A stretch of DNA of 43,468 bases from an uncultured Candidatus Saccharibacteria bacterium (GCA_964493145.1 CAZBMV010000004.1:1-43468), one strand, 5' to 3'. Positions 11,113 to 25,588 are shown, counted from the first letter of the stretch. Program-made: numbers and translations. The notes: a model not told the origin generated them from the letters alone.

Positions 11113-11162
11113 TTTCCATTTATACTATAATTCCCCATGGGGAATTATAGTATAAATGGAAA
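11113..11162. repeat. Perfect 50-bp loopless palindrome
   Basis: TTTCCATTTATACTATAATTCCCCA|TGGGGAATTATAGTATAAATGGAAA. Confidence 0.95.
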
Positions 11163-15658: not shown

Positions 15659-17860
15659 CTACTGTGGAGTCACTTCATTTTGAATCCCAAGATTCGTCCC
15701 AATCATACTTGTCATAAACTGCTCCGCCTGCTCCTTGAAACTCGGAATGTCTTCTCCCGCTTTCTTCAAGATCTCAACGGCACGTGCGGTGTCACCGGAC
15801 TCATTGAGTACGTACGCGAGACTGGTGCGCTCTTGTGGATCGTTTGGTTTCGCTGCCACGCGCATCTCAAGCATTTCAATGAGGAGCGAGTACTGCTTTG
15901 CCATGTACGCCGCCTGCACCGCTCTATCATCCATCGCAAGCGCACGCTTCTCTTCCTCGGTCGTGATGATTTCACTCACGCGTTCCGGCATCTTCGCGTA
16001 GAGGAGCGACATCGCATAGAGAACGCGCGATTCCATAAACTGCGGACCAAGGTCGTACGCCTCCTTGAAGAGTGCGACACCTTTCTCCATATCCTGCTTC
16101 TGCAAGTGGGCAAAGCCCTGCTCGTAGATAATGAGTTGCTTTCGCGGTGAGAGTTCGCGAGCTGTGTTGAGGTGCTCAATCGCCTTGTCGGTGTTGCCGG
16201 TCATTCTGTAGAACGAACTGACGAAGACCTCAACGCGCGCGTCTCCCGGCTTTTCGTCAATTTGCTTGAGAAGCTCTTCCTCAACGCGCACCGCAAACTT
16301 TTGCTTGATCTCATCAGGCACGTTCTTGTCTTGGTAGAGCGACTGGAAGCGCTGGGTCATCTGTTCGCGAATTTCTTGGTTTCCGAATGAGTTTCGCGAG
16401 AGCGCGATGTTGAAGTGCTCAAGCATCGCACTCGGGTCTTGTGTCCTGAACGCGTCAATGATGTCACTCGCGGCTTTGATATTTGGCACGTTGACGTAGT
16501 AGACGGTTGCAAAGAGGACGACACCGATGATTGGTGTCACCACCTGCTCCACGACGCTCGTGTTCACCTTCCACGTTTCAATGTTCTGAACAGGTACGGC
16601 GACTCGTGCGTGAATGTACGCGAGTATCGTGCCGTAGAAGATGTAACTGACAATGTTGTCAAAGACGAAGACGTTGTGGACGAGGTACCCCGCGAGAAGT
16701 CCGAGGAGTACGGCACGCTCAATGGTGGAGAACGTCTCATCGTCTCTCCGCATGAGCGGACGAACGAAGAGGTAGTACACCGCCGCGCCGAGAATGGAGA
16801 AGTACGCAATGAGTCCGAGCGCACCTCCCGCAATGAGCCAATCCATGACAATGTTGTGCACGCGGTCAAACCACGCCTCCTGCCCATGGAGTTCCGGTTC
16901 GTAGTACTTGTTGAAGACGTAGTTGTAGTTGCTCTGCCCCCACCCGAGAATCGGACGCTCTTTCACGCCATTGAACGCCATTGACCATATATCAAAACGA
17001 GTTGACGCTTCTTTGAGTGAGATAGAGGCAATACGCTCAAGGTACGGATTCTCCTGTATGAATGCCGACTCCTTGAAGGTGACAAAGAGCGCCACGAGCG
17101 AGATGAGACCCACGATGCCTCCCGTCGCAACCTTGCGAACGATTGGGTACTCCCGCGCGAAGAGTGCCATGTACGCCACCATGATGAATGAACCGGTGAG
17201 GAGGCCGAGGACGGTACCGCGCGTTGCGGTCTGCACGAGGAGGTAGATGAAGAGGAGCGCGAGGCCGCCGTAGACGTACCGTGCGCCGACACTCTTTGTA
17301 CGGAAGAGCATGAAGAACGTAATGAATACGTGGAAGAGCATGTAGATAGCCATGTACGCCGAGTTTCCGAGTGTTCCATCAAGGCGCCATCCTCCCTGGT
17401 TGATGGTGATGTTGCCTGAGAGCTGCGCGAATGCGTAGAGTGAGAGAACGATGGCAACGCCGATTGTTGTGATGAAGAGTCTGTCCCACACTTTTTCCGT
17501 GCGGAGTACGCTCCCCGCGACGAGCATGTAGAGGAAGGTGTGCACCAAGGTGACGTACCCCTCCATACGCTCAAAGTTGCTCCAAAAACTTGCGTGAGAA
17601 TTCTCACCAAAGAGGTTGGCAAAAAACATCACGACGAGGAGTCCGCTGAAACAGGCGAGGATCCACGAGAAGCGCGGACGGTAGTACGGCTCGTAGAGCG
17701 CGAGTATGACCCACGCTGCAAAGATAATTTCAACAATAATGCGAAAGGCGAAGTTCTTTCCCGTAATAAATGGGAAGAAGAGCGGATTGGAAATGTACAG
17801 TACGATTGCGGGAATGATGAAAATTCCGGCGTACACGAGTGCTTTTGATATATCTTTCAT
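15659..17860 (-). CDS. O-antigen ligase (Wzy_C) family membrane protein with C-terminal TPR region; probable O-oligosaccharyltransferase
   Basis: About 12 TM segments, RLDGTLGNSAYMA, TATRG, RPILGWG, FDRVHN. Start MKDISK (ORF-track start 17920 probably overextended). Confidence 0.88.
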   Translation of the reverse strand: MKDISKALVYAGIFIIPAIVLYISNPLFFPFITGKNFAFRIIVEIIFAAWVILALYEPYYRPRFSWILACFSGLLVVMFFANLFGENSHASFWSNFERMEGYVTLVHTFLYMLVAGSVLRTEKVWDRLFITTIGVAIVLSLYAFAQLSGNITINQGGWRLDGTLGNSAYMAIYMLFHVFITFFMLFRTKSVGARYVYGGLALLFIYLLVQTATRGTVLGLLTGSFIMVAYMALFAREYPIVRKVATGGIVGLISLVALFVTFKESAFIQENPYLERIASISLKEASTRFDIWSMAFNGVKERPILGWGQSNYNYVFNKYYEPELHGQEAWFDRVHNIVMDWLIAGGALGLIAYFSILGAAVYYLFVRPLMRRDDETFSTIERAVLLGLLAGYLVHNVFVFDNIVSYIFYGTILAYIHARVAVPVQNIETWKVNTSVVEQVVTPIIGVVLFATVYYVNVPNIKAASDIIDAFRTQDPSAMLEHFNIALSRNSFGNQEIREQMTQRFQSLYQDKNVPDEIKQKFAVRVEEELLKQIDEKPGDARVEVFVSSFYRMTGNTDKAIEHLNTARELSPRKQLIIYEQGFAHLQKQDMEKGVALFKEAYDLGPQFMESRVLYAMSLLYAKMPERVSEIITTEEEKRALAMDDRAVQAAYMAKQYSLLIEMLEMRVAAKPNDPQERTSLAYVLNESGDTARAVEILKKAGEDIPSFKEQAEQFMTSMIGTNLGIQNEVTPQ

Positions 17861-17906
17861 AATGCCAAAAACTATATCACGTGTGGCACGAGGTGAAAAC
17901 GGTGAC

Positions 17907-17945
17907 AAAAACACCCGCAATCGCGAAGCGATTACGGTTGTTTTT
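17907..17945. repeat. REP-like hairpin R1, copy 1 (GCGAAGC on + strand)
   Basis: AAAAACACCCGCAATCGC-GAA-GCGATTACGGTTGTTTTT. Confidence 0.8.
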
Positions 17946-17967
17946 AAACAGGTCTTTCCTGTTTATT
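17946..17967. repeat. Hairpin R2, copy 1
   Basis: AAACAGG-TCTTT-CCTGTTT-ATT, identical 22-mer at 21022-21043. Confidence 0.85.
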
Positions 17968-17976
17968 CTACCACTC

Positions 17977-18243
17977 TCACACATTCTTATGGATGAGTGA
18001 AGTGATGAATGTTTGGTATGGTATTCCCTCTCGTGCGGCAGTTGCCTTAAGGTGCACCAAATCACGCTCGCTGAGACGAACACTGATAGTGCGTGTCTTC
18101 TCCAACGTATACCGCGCTATCGCAGCAAGTTCTTCTCTCTCCTCCTTGGTTGGTGGACGCGTCACAATTTCACCACTTTCAAGTGCATCTTCAATTTCTT
18201 GCTCTTCCGGTGTGAGGTTGTCAAAATTAGGTTCTTTAATCAT
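17977..18243 (-). CDS. CopG/RHH-type antitoxin (BrnA-like)
   Basis: C-terminal TRTISVRLSERDLVHLKATAAREGIPYQTFITSLIH, directly downstream of brnT. Confidence 0.85.
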   Translation of the reverse strand: MIKEPNFDNLTPEEQEIEDALESGEIVTRPPTKEEREELAAIARYTLEKTRTISVRLSERDLVHLKATAAREGIPYQTFITSLIHKNV

Positions 18244-18253
18244 GGTGTGTGTA

Positions 18254-18520
18254 TTACTTTGATAAATATTTCTTCGTCTCTTTCCTTGATGGGTATATTG
18301 TTTTGAGAAAAATTTTTTTGTCGTCTACTACGCAGGGAATTACGTATGCGTATCCGTGTAATGCAACAACGTATTTCATTTGGTGCGTATACGGTGGCTT
18401 ATTGTCTTCAACTGAAAGTATTCTATCTTCAACAATTTCAACCACACACATCTCAAATGAAACTCCCCTGTTCGCAATAAGCCATTCGTTCTTTTCCTTA
18501 TCCCAGTCAAAGTACTTCAT
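18254..18520 (-). CDS. brnT: BrnT-family toxin
   Basis: MKYFDWDKEKNEWLIANRGVSFE...KIFLKTIYPSRK. Confidence 0.88.
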   Translation of the reverse strand: MKYFDWDKEKNEWLIANRGVSFEMCVVEIVEDRILSVEDNKPPYTHQMKYVVALHGYAYVIPCVVDDKKIFLKTIYPSRKETKKYLSK

Positions 18521-18525
18521 TGTTT

Positions 18526-18557
18526 AGTATGATATACAATGTATATCATACTGTCAA
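18526..18557 (-). promoter_or_regulatory. brnT operon promoter (TTGACA-17-TATCAT) overlapped by a 27-bp operator palindrome
   Basis: Palindrome AGTATGATATACA-a-TGTATATCATACT (18526-18552); -35 at 18552-18557, -10 at 18529-18534. The ATG lies 8 nt after the -10, so the mRNA is leaderless-like. Confidence 0.8.
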
Positions 18558-18563
18558 TGTACA

Positions 18564-18600
18564 AAAACACCCGCAATCGCTTCGCGATTGCGGGTGTTTT
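18564..18600. repeat. REP-like hairpin R1, copy 2 (GCGAAGC on - strand)
   Basis: AAAACACCCGCAATCGC-TTC-GCGATTGCGGGTGTTTT, perfect 17-bp arms. Confidence 0.85.
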
Positions 18601-18611
18601 CTACAATAAAA

Positions 18612-20264
18612 CTACCCCTTTGCAAGGAATCCGCGGTCTCTGAGGTACGCGAGTATTTCCTCCACGAGTTCTTCCGGCGTCGCTTCCTCCGTCTTTGCGA
18701 CGAGTTCCGGATTCTCCGGTCGCTCGTACGGGTCATCAACACCGGTGAAGTTCTTAAGGAGTCCCTGCCGCGCCTTCTCATAGAGCCCTTTCGTATCGCG
18801 TCGCGCGCACTCATCAAGTGATGTGTCCACAAATATCTCAATGAACTCACCATGCTCCTCCACCATCGCGCGCACGCGGCGGCGTGCATCGCGATACGGC
18901 GCAATGAGTGAACAGATGACGATGCCACCGTGGCGAACGATTTCACTCGCCACAAACCCGACACGCTTCACGTTCTCATCACGATCCTCCTTTGAAAATC
19001 CGAGTCCCTTTGAGAGGTGTTCGCGAATGACGTCTCCATCAAGAAATGTGATGTTTCTGTCCTGAAGTTCCTGAAGACGCGAGAGAAGCAGTTGCGCGAG
19101 CGTTGACTTTCCCGAACACGAAAGTCCGGTGAAAAAGAACGCGATGCCGGGGCGTGAATCTTTGCTGACGCTGTCGCGCAAAATGGCAATACTCTCCTTG
19201 AACGAGAACCACTCCGGGATCTCTTCCCCTTCGCGAAGACGCCGACGAAACTCAGTTCCCGAAATAGTTTCAATTTCATCGTCAGGTGTCACCTCGTGTG
19301 ACGCCACGTACGCGTCGCGCGTCTTTGAGTACGCGAGTTCATCCGAAGGGACAACGGTGATACCAATCTCGTCTGCACATTTCTCTACGAGGTCACGTGC
19401 ATCATAGGGGCCGTAAAAATCCTTTCCATCGCTCCCTTTCCCCGGGCCCGCGTGATCCCTCCCCACAATGAAGTGCGTGCACCCGTAGTTCTTTCGTATG
19501 ATGGCGTGCCAGAGGGCCTCACGCGGGCCCGCCATGCGCATTGCGAGGGGCAGGAGCGAAAGTTCCATAAAATCCTTTCCGTGCGTGTTACACACCGCAT
19601 TGTACGTGCGCACACGGGTCACGTAGTCAATATCCCCCGGCTTCGTCATGCCGACGACGGGATGTACGAGAACGGGGGCACCAACCTTTTCATGAGCGCG
19701 CCTCACGAGTTCAAAGTGGGCACGATGCATCGGGTTCCGTGTTTGAAAGCCGACGACCTTGTCCCACCCACGTTCCTTAAAGAGCGCTTTGAGTTCTTGA
19801 GGCGTCTTCCGCAGGTGCGCAAAATCATTCCGCATAGGGAGTGCGATTTTGGTCACCGTACCGCCGAAGTACGTATCACCCATCTCATCAAAGAGGTACT
19901 GCACACCGGGGTGTGCCCGATCTTCGGTACCGTACACGTTTCGCGCCTCTTCGTTCTTGTCCGGGGTGTAGCGGGACGTAATGTGCATTGTCGCCAATGG
20001 ATTTCCAAACGGGTCGCAGAGGAGTACATCGTCACCAACCTTGTACGGACTGTCATTATGAACGTCAAGAACAATGGGAATAGGAAACAGCGTCCCATCG
20101 GGGAGGCGCATCGTTTCAACGACGGCGTTATACTCCTCTTCGGTCATAAAGCCCGTAACCGGCGCAAAACCACCTACGAGCATCACCTCCAAATCATGAA
20201 GCACCCTTCCACGCAAGTTAATTCTCGGTAAACGCACCATGTCGCTCTTTTGTGTTTCGTCCAT
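18612..20264 (-). CDS. sat: Bifunctional ATP sulfurylase / APS kinase (PAPS synthesis)
   Basis: QTRNPMHRAH, LPLAMRMAGPREALWHAIIRKNYGCTHFIVGRDHAGPG; C-terminal CysC domain GLSCSGKST, LDGDVIR, LYEKARQG..NFTGVDDPYE. Start uncertain (20264, 20240 or 20345). Confidence 0.95.
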   Translation of the reverse strand: MDETQKSDMVRLPRINLRGRVLHDLEVMLVGGFAPVTGFMTEEEYNAVVETMRLPDGTLFPIPIVLDVHNDSPYKVGDDVLLCDPFGNPLATMHITSRYTPDKNEEARNVYGTEDRAHPGVQYLFDEMGDTYFGGTVTKIALPMRNDFAHLRKTPQELKALFKERGWDKVVGFQTRNPMHRAHFELVRRAHEKVGAPVLVHPVVGMTKPGDIDYVTRVRTYNAVCNTHGKDFMELSLLPLAMRMAGPREALWHAIIRKNYGCTHFIVGRDHAGPGKGSDGKDFYGPYDARDLVEKCADEIGITVVPSDELAYSKTRDAYVASHEVTPDDEIETISGTEFRRRLREGEEIPEWFSFKESIAILRDSVSKDSRPGIAFFFTGLSCSGKSTLAQLLLSRLQELQDRNITFLDGDVIREHLSKGLGFSKEDRDENVKRVGFVASEIVRHGGIVICSLIAPYRDARRRVRAMVEEHGEFIEIFVDTSLDECARRDTKGLYEKARQGLLKNFTGVDDPYERPENPELVAKTEEATPEELVEEILAYLRDRGFLAKG

Positions 20265-20368
20265 ACGCTCAAATGTAACCACCACAATAGCACATTTGTT
20301 CCACTTCATAGAAAAACAGGGTGACGGAAATAATAAACAGATCAATCGTGTTTATTCCGTTTGGTCTG

Positions 20369-20641
20369 CTACCTATAGACATCCTTGCGATGTTTGATAT
20401 TCAAAATCATCAGAATAATAACGGAACCAGATTCATTTACTTCAAAGATTACTCTGTAGTCACCAACACGGTACCGGTATAATCCCACCAACGACCCAGT
20501 GAGTGCCTTTGCTCGTGTGAAAACAGTAGCATCTTCGCTAAACACCTTTACCTTTGCAACGATTCTCTGTGCGATCTTTTTATCAAGCGATTGAAGGTCT
20601 TTTAACGCCTTTGCAGTATATCGGCGAATCACCTTTTTCAT
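20369..20641 (-). CDS. relE: RelE/ParE-family toxin
   Basis: YTAKALKDLQSLD...LYRYRVGDYRVIF...IKHRKDVYR. Confidence 0.9.
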   Translation of the reverse strand: MKKVIRRYTAKALKDLQSLDKKIAQRIVAKVKVFSEDATVFTRAKALTGSLVGLYRYRVGDYRVIFEVNESGSVIILMILNIKHRKDVYR

Positions 20642-20643
20642 AT

Positions 20644-20886
20644 CTACGCAAGCATCTCAAGAACTTCTTCCTCACTATATACCCTCCCCTTTTTAGCGTC
20701 CTCTTTTGCTTCAAGAATTTCAGCAAAAAATGAATTAAGTGTTTCGTCCTCGCTAAACGGGGTCACCTCAAAGAGGGGCTTCTTGTGGCTCACAACAATA
20801 TACCGTGTTTTATTTTCACTTGCTTTTCGTGCGTATTCAGCAATTTTCTGACGAAAATCCTTAATTCCTACAAATTGTGTATTCAT
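20644..20886 (-). CDS. Phd/YefM-like antitoxin
   Basis: MNTQFVGIKDFRQKIAEYA...RYIVVSHKKPLF and acidic C-terminus EAKEDAKKGRVYSEEEV. Confidence 0.82.
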   Translation of the reverse strand: MNTQFVGIKDFRQKIAEYARKASENKTRYIVVSHKKPLFEVTPFSEDETLNSFFAEILEAKEDAKKGRVYSEEEVLEMLA

Positions 20887-20892
20887 GCATAA

Positions 20893-20922
20893 AAGTGTAC
20901 ACAATTGTGTACACTTCGTCAA
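20893..20922 (-). promoter_or_regulatory. phd-relE promoter (TTGACG-17-TACACT) with a perfect 24-bp operator palindrome
   Basis: AAGTGTACACAATTGTGTACACTT (20893-20916); ATG 7 nt after the -10. Confidence 0.8.
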
Positions 20923-20935
20923 CCGCCAAACGTCC

Positions 20936-20967
20936 ATAGAAAAAAAGAGCCAAAGGATTGGCTCTTT
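20936..20967 (-). terminator. Terminator hairpin R3, copy 1
   Basis: Minus strand AAAGAGCCAA-TCCT-TTGGCTCTTT followed by a T-tract. Near-identical to 24139-24169. Confidence 0.8.
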
Positions 20968-20982
20968 AATAACGAACGATTA

Positions 20983-21003
20983 CCCCTAGGGTTCCCCTAG
21001 GGG
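20983..21003. repeat. Hairpin CCCCTAGGG-TTC-CCCTAGGGG (GAA triloop on - strand)
   Basis: 9-bp arms built from a self-palindromic unit. Confidence 0.7.
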
Positions 21004-21021
21004 ATTTTTTAGTAGTTACAG

Positions 21022-21043
21022 AAACAGGTCTTTCCTGTTTATT
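21022..21043. repeat. Hairpin R2, copy 2
   Basis: Identical to 17946-17967 and abuts the stop codon at 21044. Confidence 0.85.
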
Positions 21044-21448
21044 TCATTGCGGGTTTTCCACAGAACGATACCCACGGACAATCTGAACAATTGAGCCGAT
21101 AACGAAGATTGAGTACATGAGTATGTGAGCAGGGATGTCGAATATGTCACTCGTGTTAAGGAACCCCCCGACAGTATGGTGAAACCCAAGATTAATGATT
21201 GTTGAAATAACGAGAATAACCGGTATGGCAACGCGGGCAAATTTCCACCATCTTTGATATACCTGATATGGTAAAAAAAATAGCAGTGCCAATATTAGCA
21301 AAACACCTCCAATAACGACAAGCCAATTGAATGCAATTCCATCATAATTTTGTAAGCATGAATAGCTGCAATATTTTCTACTACTTAATTGATCCATCAA
21401 AAATAATCCAAATGCAGCAATTCCAAAAAGCAGTGTTATTTTTTTCAT
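21044..21448 (-). CDS. Small multi-TM membrane protein of unknown function
   Basis: 134 aa with 3-4 hydrophobic segments, starting 6 nt after the lipase stop. Confidence 0.7.
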   Translation of the reverse strand: MKKITLLFGIAAFGLFLMDQLSSRKYCSYSCLQNYDGIAFNWLVVIGGVLLILALLFFLPYQVYQRWWKFARVAIPVILVISTIINLGFHHTVGGFLNTSDIFDIPAHILMYSIFVIGSIVQIVRGYRSVENPQ

Positions 21449-21454
21449 ATAAAT

Positions 21455-24001
21455 TTATTTTTTAATTAAACTCTCAATAATTCCAATGATACTTTGTCCT
21501 TCTGTTTGTGATAGAAATCGTAGACGCATATAGAGCACAACTTGTTGTTTTAGTGTATGAAGAATACGTAATTCAATCTTTGCATACTTTGGCTTCGTGA
21601 GTGATTTTTGGTGATGATGTTCTGCAACTTTTGCCGTTGCGAGGAGCACTTTCTTGAGTGCAAGCTTTAATGAAAGTGTGCTGATCGCATTTTTGAGCGT
21701 ATCGTAGGTAACTGATGCAGCAATCTCGCCACTTGTATTATATGCGATGTCTCCCGTTCCATCTCCATTGTAATCAACCTCAAGTACAGCATTTGCTATT
21801 GGAGTAGTATCCTGAATTTCCATTTGTACTCTTGTGCTCGTACTTGAGGGAATGCCCGCATAGGTGTGTCGCTCCTCCATTTTATTACTTTCCCATTCCT
21901 CAATCTCAAGTGTGAATGAACCGTCTAATAATCCATTCAAGACAAGTGTCGGCGTTTCGTCAGTGTCTCGTGGGAATGAGATGTACTGCAATTCACCATA
22001 CCGCCTGTACGTCGCTCCGCGAATGGTGTTTGTGGTGCTACTCACAACCCCATCTTGCGTGGTGACAGACATATCTAGTGGTGAGTGGAGATAGAGTACA
22101 AGCCGATCATCTTCCGGAAGTTGCGGGGGTGTGTCGCTAAAATATTCGTATGGAATGGTACTACTTGCCTGAATGGTATTTTGAACAAAATCAATCACAT
22201 CATTAACTTCAAATATATCCTTGTGAACTCTATCAAGGTTATTTTCATTATACCTAGACAAATTAACCCACCTCCTCTCAACATTCTCTGTACTCGTACT
22301 CATCGCGAGCGCGCTCGGCACCACCACCGTCCCATCTCCATCAATTACCATGTTTGGTCTATATCCAAGCTTTGCTTTATATTCAGTACATTGAAATAAC
22401 TTAAGGGGGTTTCGTGATACACACTCACGGTCGGTGAAGTACGTGATGCCTGCCGGTGTGTCTATGCCAGTACCAGCAATTTGGTATAACTTTATGTGTG
22501 ATGGTACTTCCCACTCACCGAGTAGCGTTTCTATCGTGTTTGCATAACCAAAAAGATACCCGTCAACTACTGCAGGGGTAAGGAGATCGTTAACATCAGG
22601 CACTGCCCTTCCACTCTCTTTGTGCATGAATGATTGCATGGTATCGGCATCTGCGATTTCCGTACCATACATTGATACCCACGGATTGGTTGCCGCTCCA
22701 TCTTCAAATGTAATAACTGGTGTTTGAACGCCGGAACCACTTCCAGAAAAATAATTTGCGTTTGGTAAGAGGTGATACGCAAATGGCATATTTGCCATTA
22801 ATTGACGAGTTGTTTCTTGAGAAATAATAGGCAAAATTTCTGTTCCATGAAGCATACCCATAAGTGCATCAGGAGTACCTACCTGTGGCGCGGCGACCAT
22901 GACAACAGTATCAATACTCAGAAGAAGTGGATCGTTATTGACATCCAGTGTGTGCAGAAATGCTTTTGCAAGCAATCCTCCATTCGAGTGCGTGACAATC
23001 GTTACTTTTCCGCCATCCTGATTCTCAGCAAGATCTTTCACTGTTTGATACATATAGCTTTCGTTGTATGGGGTGGTTATGTCATACACCACATGACCCT
23101 CTGAGTTCTTCTTCGTTTTCAGGATACTATCAAGACCAAGTCGCCAGTCATAGGGGAGCACAGCGTAATCTGCAATTAGTTCATTACCTTTCCAATCTTC
23201 AAGCGCATCGACAAATGTTTCGTATAAATTAAAAGCGGCGAACACATCCTCAACAAGCCCCGCTTCACCGGTTTTTGTGTATATTTCATTTTCACTCACC
23301 CCATCAATGCGCATCGCCATCTGCATCTGATCACACTCACTCATTGATACCCATCGCTCCTGCTCATCCACCTCAGAATCACACACATCACTCATTTCGT
23401 AGAGTCGCGACCCCATGATCCCCGGAATAAAAAGCACGCTTGAGGCGCCCGCCGGCTCCTCAACCGGTTCCGTGACCGTAAAGGTAACGGCGAGTGCCGG
23501 GCCGATGTAGCTGGCAAAGGCAGTTGGAATGAGGAGTTCACGGAAGCGTTCAAGAGCGCTTCCTCTTGTCATGACCGGAGAATACATTTCACTCACCACG
23601 AACGTGTATGTCCCCGCTTCGGTGAATCTGTACGATTCCCCGTTTGGGATGTACTGTTTCAAAATGTAATCACTTCCGCTGTGGAGGTAGAGCATACCTT
23701 CGGCGTATTCTGATGTGTACCCGGTGATGTTCCATGGATACGCGTTGCCGGTGAGAAATGCGTACGTGCTCCCGTGCTCAAGTGCTGTATCGCCGTACGT
23801 GACGACGAGCGCGGGATCCACTTCTGCAATGCCGAATGGATTGTCGCAATCCTCAATGGGAGTTTCACTGTCAATGACCGGACCGTCTCCATAGTCGTAG
23901 TACTCAATAATGCTTCCACAGGGCTCTTGTGCGAATACTGTTGCGGGAATACCCATACCTCCGATGAGTACGGCCACCGCAAGGAGAATGGCGTGTTTCA
24001 T
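21455..24001 (-). CDS. Secreted LCAT/PGAP1-like alpha/beta-hydrolase (lipase/acyltransferase)
   Basis: Signal peptide, VLFIPGIMGSRLY, LPYDWRL, nucleophile elbow VTHSNGG, AAPQVGTP, DGDGTVVVPSA, catalytic-type His in DRVHKDI. Confidence 0.85.
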   Translation of the reverse strand: MKHAILLAVAVLIGGMGIPATVFAQEPCGSIIEYYDYGDGPVIDSETPIEDCDNPFGIAEVDPALVVTYGDTALEHGSTYAFLTGNAYPWNITGYTSEYAEGMLYLHSGSDYILKQYIPNGESYRFTEAGTYTFVVSEMYSPVMTRGSALERFRELLIPTAFASYIGPALAVTFTVTEPVEEPAGASSVLFIPGIMGSRLYEMSDVCDSEVDEQERWVSMSECDQMQMAMRIDGVSENEIYTKTGEAGLVEDVFAAFNLYETFVDALEDWKGNELIADYAVLPYDWRLGLDSILKTKKNSEGHVVYDITTPYNESYMYQTVKDLAENQDGGKVTIVTHSNGGLLAKAFLHTLDVNNDPLLLSIDTVVMVAAPQVGTPDALMGMLHGTEILPIISQETTRQLMANMPFAYHLLPNANYFSGSGSGVQTPVITFEDGAATNPWVSMYGTEIADADTMQSFMHKESGRAVPDVNDLLTPAVVDGYLFGYANTIETLLGEWEVPSHIKLYQIAGTGIDTPAGITYFTDRECVSRNPLKLFQCTEYKAKLGYRPNMVIDGDGTVVVPSALAMSTSTENVERRWVNLSRYNENNLDRVHKDIFEVNDVIDFVQNTIQASSTIPYEYFSDTPPQLPEDDRLVLYLHSPLDMSVTTQDGVVSSTTNTIRGATYRRYGELQYISFPRDTDETPTLVLNGLLDGSFTLEIEEWESNKMEERHTYAGIPSSTSTRVQMEIQDTTPIANAVLEVDYNGDGTGDIAYNTSGEIAASVTYDTLKNAISTLSLKLALKKVLLATAKVAEHHHQKSLTKPKYAKIELRILHTLKQQVVLYMRLRFLSQTEGQSIIGIIESLIKK

Positions 24002-24078
24002 ATTCTGTCAATTATACACCTCGCCTCATCAATTTTTCCTGAAGAAGAGATAAAGAAAATTTTATGAAACGCAGATGT

Positions 24079-24139
24079 GTTCAAGGCCGGACCTTGTACG
24101 TGTAAGACCTTGTACGTTTAACGGACCTTGAACGTGTAA
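24079..24139. repeat. Short element of three tandem ~17-bp units inside an 8-bp inverted repeat (REP/MITE-like)
   Basis: GGACCTTGTACGTGTAA / GACCTTGTACGTTTAAC / GGACCTTGAACGTGTAA; GTTCAAGG (24079-86) is complementary to CCTTGAAC (24126-33). Confidence 0.7.
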
Positions 24140-24169
24140 TAGAAAAAAGAGCCAAAGGATTGGCTCTTT
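24139..24169 (-). terminator. Terminator hairpin R3, copy 2 (after gmhA)
   Basis: ATAGAAAAAAGAGCCAAAGGATTGGCTCTTT, differing from copy 1 only in A-run length. Confidence 0.8.
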
Positions 24170-24184
24170 TGAAAAGTACTTCCC

Positions 24185-24796
24185 TCACGTCCCGTGAAGA
24201 AAATCCACGGAATCTGCAAGAACGAAGTGTTGGTCTAGAAAATCGCAGAGAATGTGAATGAGCATGATGTGACACTCCTGAATGTGCGGAGTCTCGTCAG
24301 ACGGAACGATGATTGCCTCGTCACAGAGTCTGCGTTTATGCAGTTCTCCACCATCTCGTCCGAGGAGCCCAAAAACAAAGAGCCCCCGCGTATGCGCCAT
24401 CTCAGCGGCTTCAACCAAATTTCCGGAATTACCGCTCGTTGAAATGACGACGAGCACATCGCCCGCACACCCGTGTGCCTCAACCTGTCGTGCGAAAGCC
24501 GATGTGAATGAGTGGTCATTTCCCCACGCGGTGAGCGCCGAGGTGTCACAGTGGAGTGCGAGTGCGGGACGCGCCTTCCGCTTTGCCAAAAACTGACACG
24601 TAATCTCTGCGGCAAAGTGCTGTGCATCTGCGGCACTTCCACCGTTTCCGGCAATGAGCGTTTTTCTCCCACCTTCGTACACGTAGACGAGTTTCTCCGC
24701 CATACGAGAGACGGTGTTGAGTGCACTATCATCATGAAGTAGACGATTTTTCACTCTCACTGACTTCTCAATGGATTCACGAATATACCCGAGCAT
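24185..24796 (-). CDS. gmhA: Sedoheptulose-7-phosphate isomerase (SIS domain)
   Basis: AGNGGSAADAQHFAAE, WGNDHSF..FARQVEA, ISTSGNSGN, IQECHIMLIHILC; SD AAGGAGG upstream. Confidence 0.92.
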   Translation of the reverse strand: MLGYIRESIEKSVRVKNRLLHDDSALNTVSRMAEKLVYVYEGGRKTLIAGNGGSAADAQHFAAEITCQFLAKRKARPALALHCDTSALTAWGNDHSFTSAFARQVEAHGCAGDVLVVISTSGNSGNLVEAAEMAHTRGLFVFGLLGRDGGELHKRRLCDEAIIVPSDETPHIQECHIMLIHILCDFLDQHFVLADSVDFLHGT

Positions 24797-24877: not shown

Positions 24878-25588
24878 CTACTTATTGAGTTTAATACGTC
24901 GCTCTTTCTCCACTCCAAAATCACTATCCTCTTCCGAAATGCGACTGATGTCATCCTCGTCTGAAGGACCAACTTGAACCTCCATAACGTCAAGCGGTTC
25001 ATTGTCGGGCGCTTGAAGCACATGCCAGACACCAGGTAAATTCACCCGCACTTCACCATTCGGCATGAAAAAGAATTCGCTCCGTTTTGAGTGTTTCTGA
25101 AGAGAGAGACTCTTCCCCGCGTCAACGTGAATGAGCTTAACCTTTACCATCGGCATATCTATGATGACGTTGTAGTGTCCCCAGCGAGTTTCTACACGTG
25201 ACCGAGAATTCACAATTGAACTGGATGCGTACTTCCCTCCACCGAGTTCAAATACCGGCTCAATACCCAACTGTTCACAGAGCAGAAGTTCCGGCGTATT
25301 GCCAGGACCACGATCTCCACCGTTCCCAAAGTAATCCGGCTTGATTCTCGCAAGTGCCTCACACACCGTTCCGTCGGTGTCATCAACAGAATGAATGAAT
25401 GGGGTATACGCCTCAAGAATTTTCTTTCTATCAATCCACGGCTGAAATAGAAACCCCTTCTTACGAATGAGCCACGCATCACTATTGAGAATAATATGGA
25501 CCTCACCATACTCTCGCGCCGATTCAATCATTGCAATGTGCCCCGGGTGTATGGGATCAAATCCACCTGAAATCATTATTTTTTTCAT
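24878..25588 (-). CDS. Cytidylyltransferase-like (HxGH) domain fused to a cupin (type II mannose-6-P isomerase-like)
   Basis: SGGFDPIHPGH...FGNGGDR...GGGKYASSS, then ETRWGHY...KSLSLQKHSKRSE...EVQVG..DEDDISR. Confidence 0.85.
   Translation of the reverse strand: MKKIMISGGFDPIHPGHIAMIESAREYGEVHIILNSDAWLIRKKGFLFQPWIDRKKILEAYTPFIHSVDDTDGTVCEALARIKPDYFGNGGDRGPGNTPELLLCEQLGIEPVFELGGGKYASSSIVNSRSRVETRWGHYNVIIDMPMVKVKLIHVDAGKSLSLQKHSKRSEFFFMPNGEVRVNLPGVWHVLQAPDNEPLDVMEVQVGPSDEDDISRISEEDSDFGVEKERRIKLNK

Follow-up and report, generated by a model that had tools for sequence, protein, structure and literature searches.

How toxin-antitoxin (TA) pairs and a lipase/membrane protein pair came to lie between repeated hairpins around the core gene sat-cysC is the question raised by a stretch of 43,468 nt from an uncultured Candidatus Saccharibacteria bacterium (GCA_964493145.1, CAZBMV010000004.1; here the window, contig C4:1-43468 of a genome of 778 kb in 16 contigs with 49% GC; the names attached to related proteins suggest Patescibacteria/Parcubacteria). 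An initial annotation, made from the sequence alone, distinguished three families of hairpins (R1 to R3) and proposed a hotspot of hairpin-guided cassette capture, possibly served in trans by a HUH or tyrosine recombinase. Repeat and synteny comparison with 20 other genomes of the genus (21 with this one, G000) and with metagenome and Logan contigs points to a different origin: the brnTA TA pair and the lipase unit were probably each inserted with duplication of the resident terminator, by recombinase-free insertion with long target duplication (ILTD). R1 (~40 nt) and R3 (31 nt) would then be duplicates of the terminators of sat-cysC and of a SIS-domain gene, each bracketing an insert, and not borders of integron-like cassettes. 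The features concerned are:

17905-17944: R1a, second, decayed copy of the sat-cysC terminator, now serving as the end of the brnTA operon; loop flipped, stem with two mismatches
17945-18560, minus strand: brnTA insert (616 nt), including R2a, brnA, brnT, operator and promoter
18561-18600: R1b, resident perfect bidirectional intrinsic terminator of sat-cysC; 17-bp stem, U-run, GAA loop on the transcript
20936-20967: R3a, distal SIS terminator copy; pairs with R3b as a direct repeat of 31/32 nt
20968-24138, minus strand: lipase unit insert (3171 nt), with hairpin H, R2b, membrane protein, lipase and element T
24139-24169: R3b, resident intrinsic terminator of the SIS gene; single copy at the candidate empty site

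All three repeats were recovered, R2 as an exact 22-mer and R3 as an exact 27-mer (20941-20967 and 24143-24169) that with one T indel reaches 31/32 nt (20936-20967 and 24139-24169); by arithmetic, chance would give 12 kb of sequence ~4e-6 exact pairs of 22-mers and ~4e-9 of 27-mers. The description as three hairpin families did not hold: R1 and R3 are local duplicates with two copies each in this genome and no copies in the 20 other genus genomes at <=3 mismatches, and only R2 (one further intergenic copy, C2:59367) and the hairpin at 20983 are dispersed. On the transcribed strand R1a, R1b, R3a and R3b are all canonical intrinsic terminators with U-runs.

A candidate empty site for the lipase unit comes from L154, a 1005-nt Logan contig (SRR11577119) on which the exact phd protein was found and where the gene order is SIS, one R3, phd. 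L154 1-697 matches window 24833-24139 at 92.1% and L154 667-1005 matches window 20967-20628 at 98.8%, the two alignments overlapping by 31 nt, which is one R3; the presence/absence difference thus covers 20968-24138, precisely the segment between the R3 copies. The junction of hairpin 20983, R3a and phd was confirmed in L153 (98.6% identical), which, like L152 below, is an independent contig from another run, the two coming from different runs. Lipase-membrane protein pairs lie near rplJ in relatives, as does the paralogue in this genome (C1), making rplJ the syntenic home of the pair. The window lipase and its C1 paralogue share 42% protein identity overall, and a ~610-nt DNA patch of 83% identity (23418-24029 versus C1:7697-8305), covering the lipase 5′ end and 28 nt upstream, looks like gene conversion. 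Recent duplication of the unit from the C1 paralogue was ruled out, the proteins being 42% identical outside the 5′ patch. In relatives, the stretch upstream of lipase-membrane protein pairs (L114 217-1100, corresponding to G016:C1:939.2-940.1 kb, and L115, corresponding to G013:C42) gathers TA modules and remnants: a truncated brnA, a phd fragment, a PemK-like open reading frame (ORF; by eye) and a relB/parE-type pair.

The brnTA insert is bracketed by R1, whose copies had been placed in opposite orientations. An inverted match does exist (17908-17950 versus 18558-18600, 91% complementary over 43 nt, longest perfect block 26 nt), as does a direct one (17905-17944 versus 18561-18600, 88% identity over 40 nt, longest perfect block 20 nt), and the orientation is not secure because R1 is itself a palindrome with a 17-bp stem, its copies being distinguishable only by the 3-nt loop (GAA versus TTC) and two stem mismatches. 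The d(GCGAAGC) mini-hairpin noted at the outset is found on the plus strand in R1a and on the minus strand in R1b; predicted hairpin energies are -21.8 (R1a) and -31.8 kcal/mol (R1b). At the position of R1b, relatives G007, L036 and L054 have a single terminator of differing sequence, and brnTA is absent from the spacer between sat-cysC and the downstream Wzy gene in at least 20 relatives, with no exception among the genus genomes and metagenome contigs examined. Homology of brnTA to copies elsewhere stops at ~17977 and ~18558 of the window, which leaves R1 and R2 outside the shared part. In L152, from a strain 96.4% identical, the brnTA arrangement is unchanged, confirming the sat-cysC/R1b/brnT and brnA/R2a junctions.

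The region is a variable spot around core sat-cysC, with three self-contained low-GC modules in short spacers. As the initial annotation had it, the gene sets are accessory and have repeated hairpins at their borders, with 40% GC in the brnTA insert, 40% in phd-parE and 44% in the lipase unit (40-44% versus 53-55% in flanking core genes). All genes between 15.6 and 25.6 kb are on the minus strand; calls are based on a Pfam search of the ORFs in this interval:

15659-17860, minus strand: Wzy_C/TPR O-antigen-ligase-like protein, core (Pfam; synteny)
17899..17871, minus strand: Wzy promoter-like site (promoter scan), starting 5 nt past R1a
17977-18243, minus strand: brnA, CopG-type antitoxin (Pfam)
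18254-18520, minus strand: brnT (Pfam)
18526-18552: palindromic brnTA operator, within the brnTA insert
18557..18529, minus strand: brnTA own promoter (promoter scan), starting 3 nt past R1b
18612-20264, minus strand: sat-cysC (ATP sulfurylase + APS kinase), core, 55% GC (Pfam; adjoins Wzy in relatives)
20369-20641, minus strand: parE (Pfam)
20644-20886, minus strand: phd (Pfam, ParE/Phd)
20893-20916: palindromic phd-parE operator
20922..20894, minus strand: phd-parE promoter (promoter scan)
21044-21448, minus strand: membrane protein, 134 aa (gene calls)
21455-24001, minus strand: LCAT-like lipase (Pfam)
24079-24139: element T, tandem/palindrome-derived, upstream of the lipase
24185-24796, minus strand: SIS-domain protein, core, part of the upstream sugar-biosynthesis cluster (Pfam)
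24878-25588, minus strand: cytidylyltransferase/cupin protein (gene calls)

Wherever both genes are visible in the genus genomes and metagenome contigs examined, Wzy is directly downstream of sat-cysC, and in most relatives the spacer between them is ~40-330 nt long with zero hairpins or one terminator of differing sequence. The gene upstream of sat-cysC differs among relatives (cytidylyltransferase/cupin, SIS or distant lipase homologues); in G007, SIS abuts sat-cysC and none of the three modules is present. A few relatives (L040, L047, L055, L021) carry 0.7-3.2 kb of other cargo in the sat-cysC/Wzy spacer, with methyltransferase-like ORFs by eye. Empty sites were looked for in relatives and found, with variable spacers around sat-cysC. 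Element T, noted initially as a tandem element at 24079, consists of three tandem units of 17-18 nt at 24088-24139, and its first 23 nt are also present in a 42-nt perfect palindrome, TTCAAGGCCGGACCTTGTACATGTACAAGGTCCGGCCTTGAA, at C12:1360-1401.

The third module, phd-parE, is absent in G007 and has homologues at other loci in relatives; on related contigs these lie near rplJ, or between rpsJ and rplC, bracketed by repeated hairpins. One such contig (L157 1862-3621, Logan DRR213768) has a phd-parE homologue and a DUF4116 gene inside the S10 operon, between rpsJ and rplC, the genes being set apart by three copies of a hairpin, CACAAAC(A/T)AGGACATCCGATGTCCT(T/A)GTTTGTGT. By reading only, a possible short target duplication was seen at phd-parE in the window: TTTTT(T)CTATG(G/A)A after R3a (20925-20940) and again after R2′ (20305-20325), the second copy just ahead of the sat-cysC promoter region.

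The same architecture is found at other loci in relatives. In G001, G018 and G020, brnTA homologues occupy the spacer between thrS and a convergent gene; the shared sequence runs from the promoter exactly to the brnA stop codon and no further. In G001 the pair is inside a 67-nt direct repeat made up of a hairpin and 33 nt of spacer, while the thrS spacer is empty (72-111 nt, one bidirectional terminator) in G000 (this genome), G002, G003, G004, G008 and G015; the hairpin of the G001 repeat is similar to the one resident in G002, so that the G001 repeat is target-derived. Direct repeats of 71 nt in G013 and 45 nt in G016 enclose a DUF4258/DUF2283 pair and a single ORF, respectively; these 45-71-nt repeats all contain a hairpin. 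The long repeats of G001 and G013, which include 33-40 nt of unique non-hairpin spacer, have two local copies each and none further (genome-wide count). R2 is missing from the brnTA cassettes of G001 and G020. The insert ends of the five cases, compared by eye, have no common sequence, and the duplication is 31-71 nt long.

The nearest known phenomenon, ILTD (Nobusato et al. 2000, cited in Furuta, Abe & Kobayashi 2010), was described for restriction-modification (RM) units, and is characterised by the absence of mobility genes and by a repeat of >30 bp and variable length that matches a single copy at the empty site, often spanning gene ends (PMC2853133). Here, no mobility genes were identified in or around the insert; direct repeats exceed 30 bp for R3 (31/32 nt), R1 (40 nt at 88%, orientation ambiguous) and the relatives (45, 67 and 71 nt); a single copy is present at the empty site in L154 (one short contig) and at six thrS sites of the G001 type; and repeat copy number is low, at two each for R1, R3 and the G001 and G013 repeats. 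As in ILTD, these are small selfish units without a mobility gene, with repeats at gene ends and intact neighbours. ILTD is mostly found in naturally competent bacteria (PMC2853133). The present cases differ in their cargo, type II TA pairs and a lipase/membrane protein pair instead of RM genes, which makes the proposal for RM units, a double-strand break made by a nuclease of the cargo, inapplicable. Further differences are that an intrinsic-terminator palindrome is at the centre of the duplicated segment, that the host genome, of candidate phyla radiation (CPR) type, measures 0.78 Mb and that the R1 loop is flipped. A search of the literature for terminator duplication combined with TA insertion returned nothing specific.

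Mechanistically, the insert was most likely taken up with no help from a site-specific recombinase, where the terminator palindrome broke or stalled replication; staggered ends or a template switch, once filled in, would generate a duplication of variable length. Later spread or loss could proceed by homologous recombination of the ordinary kind, either through the flanking sequence or from one direct repeat to the other. Duplication would leave the upstream gene its terminator, provide the insert with one and keep the downstream promoter intact, and such insertions probably survive because terminator and promoter are kept in a genome with 50-130-nt spacers; the starts of the brnT and Wzy promoters 3 nt past R1b and 5 nt past R1a, respectively, are consistent with selection for an intact terminator plus promoter.

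Several observations weigh against ILTD. The inverted alignment of R1 is slightly better than the direct one and its loop is flipped, neither of which is predicted by plain fill-in. L154 is one short contig and may be a chimeric join at R3, since the repeat is 31 nt and the Logan assembly was presumably built at k=31; identity to the window is also unequal across R3 (92.1% versus 98.8%). For brnTA no close-strain empty site was found, either by exact-protein look-ups with sat-cysC, SIS and the membrane protein (no matches) or by searching with the Wzy N-terminus (no match above 79% identity); the distant empty sites have a different terminator sequence, so the single copy corresponding to R1 is represented by positional equivalents only, in distant relatives. 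Target duplication does not explain why two unrelated inserts should both end, on their 3′ side, in an identical R2, or why R2′ should follow the third. The methyltransferase-like cargo in the sat-cysC/Wzy spacer of relatives has no detectable flanking repeats. Finally, we infer the direction of change, insertion as opposed to deletion between repeats, from synteny.

R2 and the hairpin at 20983 behave differently from R1 and R3. Their copies in the window are:

17946-17967: R2a, 22-mer identical to R2b, inside the brnTA insert
20335-20356: R2′, diverged R2-like hairpin with 18/22 matches (82%), 12 nt past the parE stop codon
20983-21003: hairpin H, GAA loop on the minus strand, inside the lipase unit
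21022-21043: R2b, 22-mer identical to R2a, inside the lipase unit

R2 is a weak hairpin with a 7-bp stem and without a proper U-run. A fourth copy (C2:59367, 2 mismatches; genome-wide count) is intergenic after trpS, and 13 copies were found in 5 of the 21 genus genomes (0 matches with a reversed control). It often occurs as back-to-back inverted doublets beside core genes (doublets in G016, G018, G010 and G006), once beside hicAB, and has no constant orientation relative to genes or cargo across genomes. In the trpS/aspS spacer of G006 (L141/L146, G006:C36:9472-11210), two ORFs (~1.7 kb) lie between inverted R2 copies, where G000 has the single R2 at C2:59367. The GAA-triloop hairpin of the initial annotation is present at 20983 with its GAA loop on the minus strand, and is one of five near-identical copies located after core genes, rplJ among them. 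R2 and hairpin 20983 are thus probably separate, dispersed REP-like or terminator-like hairpins that were carried inside the inserts.

Other dispersed palindromes were noted in this genome. A family of ~10 perfect copies of 36-46 nt, TTATA(T/C)TATAATTCCCCATGGGGAATTATA(A/G)TATAA, has one copy in the window (11118-11158) and others at C1:35498, 94729, 95379, 108217 and 166538, C2:87150 and 92990, C3:60015 and C5:21421; two of these bracket a gene at C1:94777-95346. Paralogous proteins of 189-190 aa with a PaaX_M/Cas2-like domain are encoded at C4:52355-53016 (outside the window) and C1:94730-95414, one inside a 38-nt direct repeat and the other between two 36-nt palindromes, ~620-650 nt apart. 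Exact 45-55-nt repeats 145-155 nt apart (55 nt each at C1:9190-9399, C1:45303-45512 and C2:2225-2434; 45 nt at C3:62866-63055) were rejected as scaffolding artefacts, with a run of ~100 N between them where checked (C1:9190-9399).

Recombination functions that could serve the locus in trans were sought across the genome. No transposase, integrase or phage genes were found at the locus (Pfam, ORFs 15.6-25.6 kb), the lack of an integrase agreeing with the initial annotation, all recombinase matches of the genome being on other contigs, and genome-wide searches found no IntI integron integrase, serine recombinase or Ku. The one tyrosine recombinase in the genome, on another contig, is of Xer type (best models XerD, XerC and XerA); with the integron-integrase model it reaches 133.5 bits, far short of the cut-off (265). 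Two Y1_Tnp/RAYT-like genes are present, both under the NCBIfam RAYT cut-off. That at C1:8428-9138 is flanked by inverted and direct copies of ACAGAGGCAAGGCCTATGTAAA (C1:8427-9174); within the reading frame of that at C3:129-872 is one copy of the multi-copy hairpin ATGTGCGACGTCCGACGTCGCACAT, with another 773 nt away (C3:129-1429). These genes are therefore flanked by repeats of their own and not by R1-R3, which speaks against the suggested HUH/RAYT service, and one of them is syntenic in G006. Capture guided by a dedicated recombinase is unlikely, as the duplicated sequence is target-derived, differs from site to site, varies from 31 to 71 nt and is not accompanied by common insert ends, and as R2 keeps no constant orientation to the genes.

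Known mobile systems share some of these features. Integron cassettes and integrase-less attC clusters likewise consist of promoter-poor or minimal accessory units, often TA, each followed by a hairpin repeat, in series. However, this genome has no IntI and no attI, the modules carry their own promoters, the bounding R1 and R3 are target-derived and R2 is only 22 nt long, while attC sites measure ~57-141 nt. A check for attC-type sites by reading the sequence gave only perfect hairpins of 19-43 nt, and an Rfam scan of the window matched no family. R2 as an oriented attC-like site was rejected, its orientation to cargo differing between genomes. A classical transposon or miniature inverted-repeat transposable element was rejected as well, the insert ends having no common sequence (by eye) and the duplication (31-71 nt) no fixed length. 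The REP/REPIN plus RAYT system resembles the present case in that R2, hairpin 20983 and the ATGTGCGACGTCCGACGTCGCACAT hairpins are short, multi-copy extragenic palindromes, sometimes in back-to-back doublets, and in that both Y1_Tnp genes are repeat-flanked, but this genome has no more than 3-4 copies of R2, none of them beside the Y1 genes. This system was rejected for R1 and R3, which are not dispersed and have two copies each, and is weakly matched by R2 and hairpin 20983. Acinetobacter plasmid dif (pdif) modules (PMC6449649, PMC13141974) are similarly discrete, often TA-bearing and bounded by short palindromes, with the recombinase not in cis; pdif is one conserved 28-bp XerC-spacer-XerD sequence in alternating orientation. 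The bounding hairpins here differ between sites, have 3-5-nt loops and long perfect stems, and are chromosomal; dif modules were rejected, since R1, R2 and R3 are unrelated in sequence and R1 and R3 are unique to this locus.

Three rivals to ILTD, and one further reading, have to be weighed. In repeat-mediated shuffling, modules would excise as circles between flanking repeats and re-enter at the same hairpin (Campbell-type), or be exchanged between strains by homologous recombination that crosses over at the hairpins, the repeats serving as portable homology and not marking where an insertion took place. This would fit the presence/absence of the R3-bounded segment equally well, the rise in L154 identity from 92.1% to 98.8% suggests a crossover at R3, and R2, hairpin 20983 and GC-rich stems recur at several loci and in several species. 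We nevertheless regard it as rather unlikely, because R1, R3 and the G001 and G013 repeats have no third copy to act as a landing site and the brnTA family lies between different locus-specific repeats in G000 and G001, so that a circle could not have carried the repeats before the first insertion. An objection, that G001 and G020 brnTA cassettes have no R2, applies to a structure-guided system in which a trans-acting recombinase (Y1 HUH/RAYT-like or Xer) reads 3′ hairpins such as R2 and inserts modules at terminator palindromes, much as in integron attC cassettes or Acinetobacter dif modules. To its credit, all three modules end in R2 or an R2-like hairpin 0-12 nt past the last stop codon, R2 occurs in five species with 0 reversed matches and frequent back-to-back doublets, G006 has ORFs between inverted R2 copies at trpS/aspS where R2 is single in G000, the genome encodes two Y1_Tnp proteins, and REP-like hairpins also follow TA modules on related contigs. 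Such a system is improbable all the same: R2 (22 nt, 7-bp stem) is far under attC size and not fixed in orientation to cargo, the Y1 genes are flanked by other repeats and one is syntenic in G006, and the genome has neither IntI nor a single conserved 28-bp Xer-type site, with repeats of 31-71 nt.

The hairpins might also have no link to mobility, being ordinary terminators made alike by local gene conversion or REP-like spread, between genes that arrived separately. Several hairpins do occur in 2-10 dispersed copies after core genes, and R2 is also found after trpS, but the 33-40 nt of unique non-hairpin spacer in the G001 and G013 repeats, the exact coincidence of the R3 repeat edges with presence/absence breakpoints and the clustering of three local pairs within ~6.3 kb (17905-24169), when most other repeated hairpins lie on different contigs, make this very doubtful. 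The flipped R1 loop, the placement of R2 and the identity shift in L154 keep shuffling and, less likely, a trans-acting hairpin system alive. We would give only a slim chance to a more far-reaching scheme, in which terminator palindromes in tiny, probably competent CPR genomes form the entry gate of structure-dependent capture, R2-like hairpins, placed 3′ on every module, act as cis handles for the Y1 HUH proteins and the whole amounts to an integrase-less cassette economy; the hairpin or cruciform would be cut, or replication stalled, on both sides, a promoter-to-stop module installed and the hairpin copied.

Under ILTD, which we consider the probable origin, two events of this type and one possible third lie side by side at one locus, and the candidate near-strain empty allele, together with the parallel cases in relatives, provides concrete junctions. 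For annotators, the locus is a caution that repeated hairpins beside TA genes need not mean integron-like arrays. ILTD has been known since 2000, mainly for RM units (PMC2853133); the present cases would indicate that TA pairs and an ordinary enzyme/membrane protein pair can move in the same way, and therefore that a cargo-encoded nuclease is not required. In case after case the target that was duplicated is the palindrome of an intrinsic terminator, which suggests one of two things: a break or stall linked to structure, or strong selection, in these very compact genomes, for insertions that leave both terminator and promoter in place.

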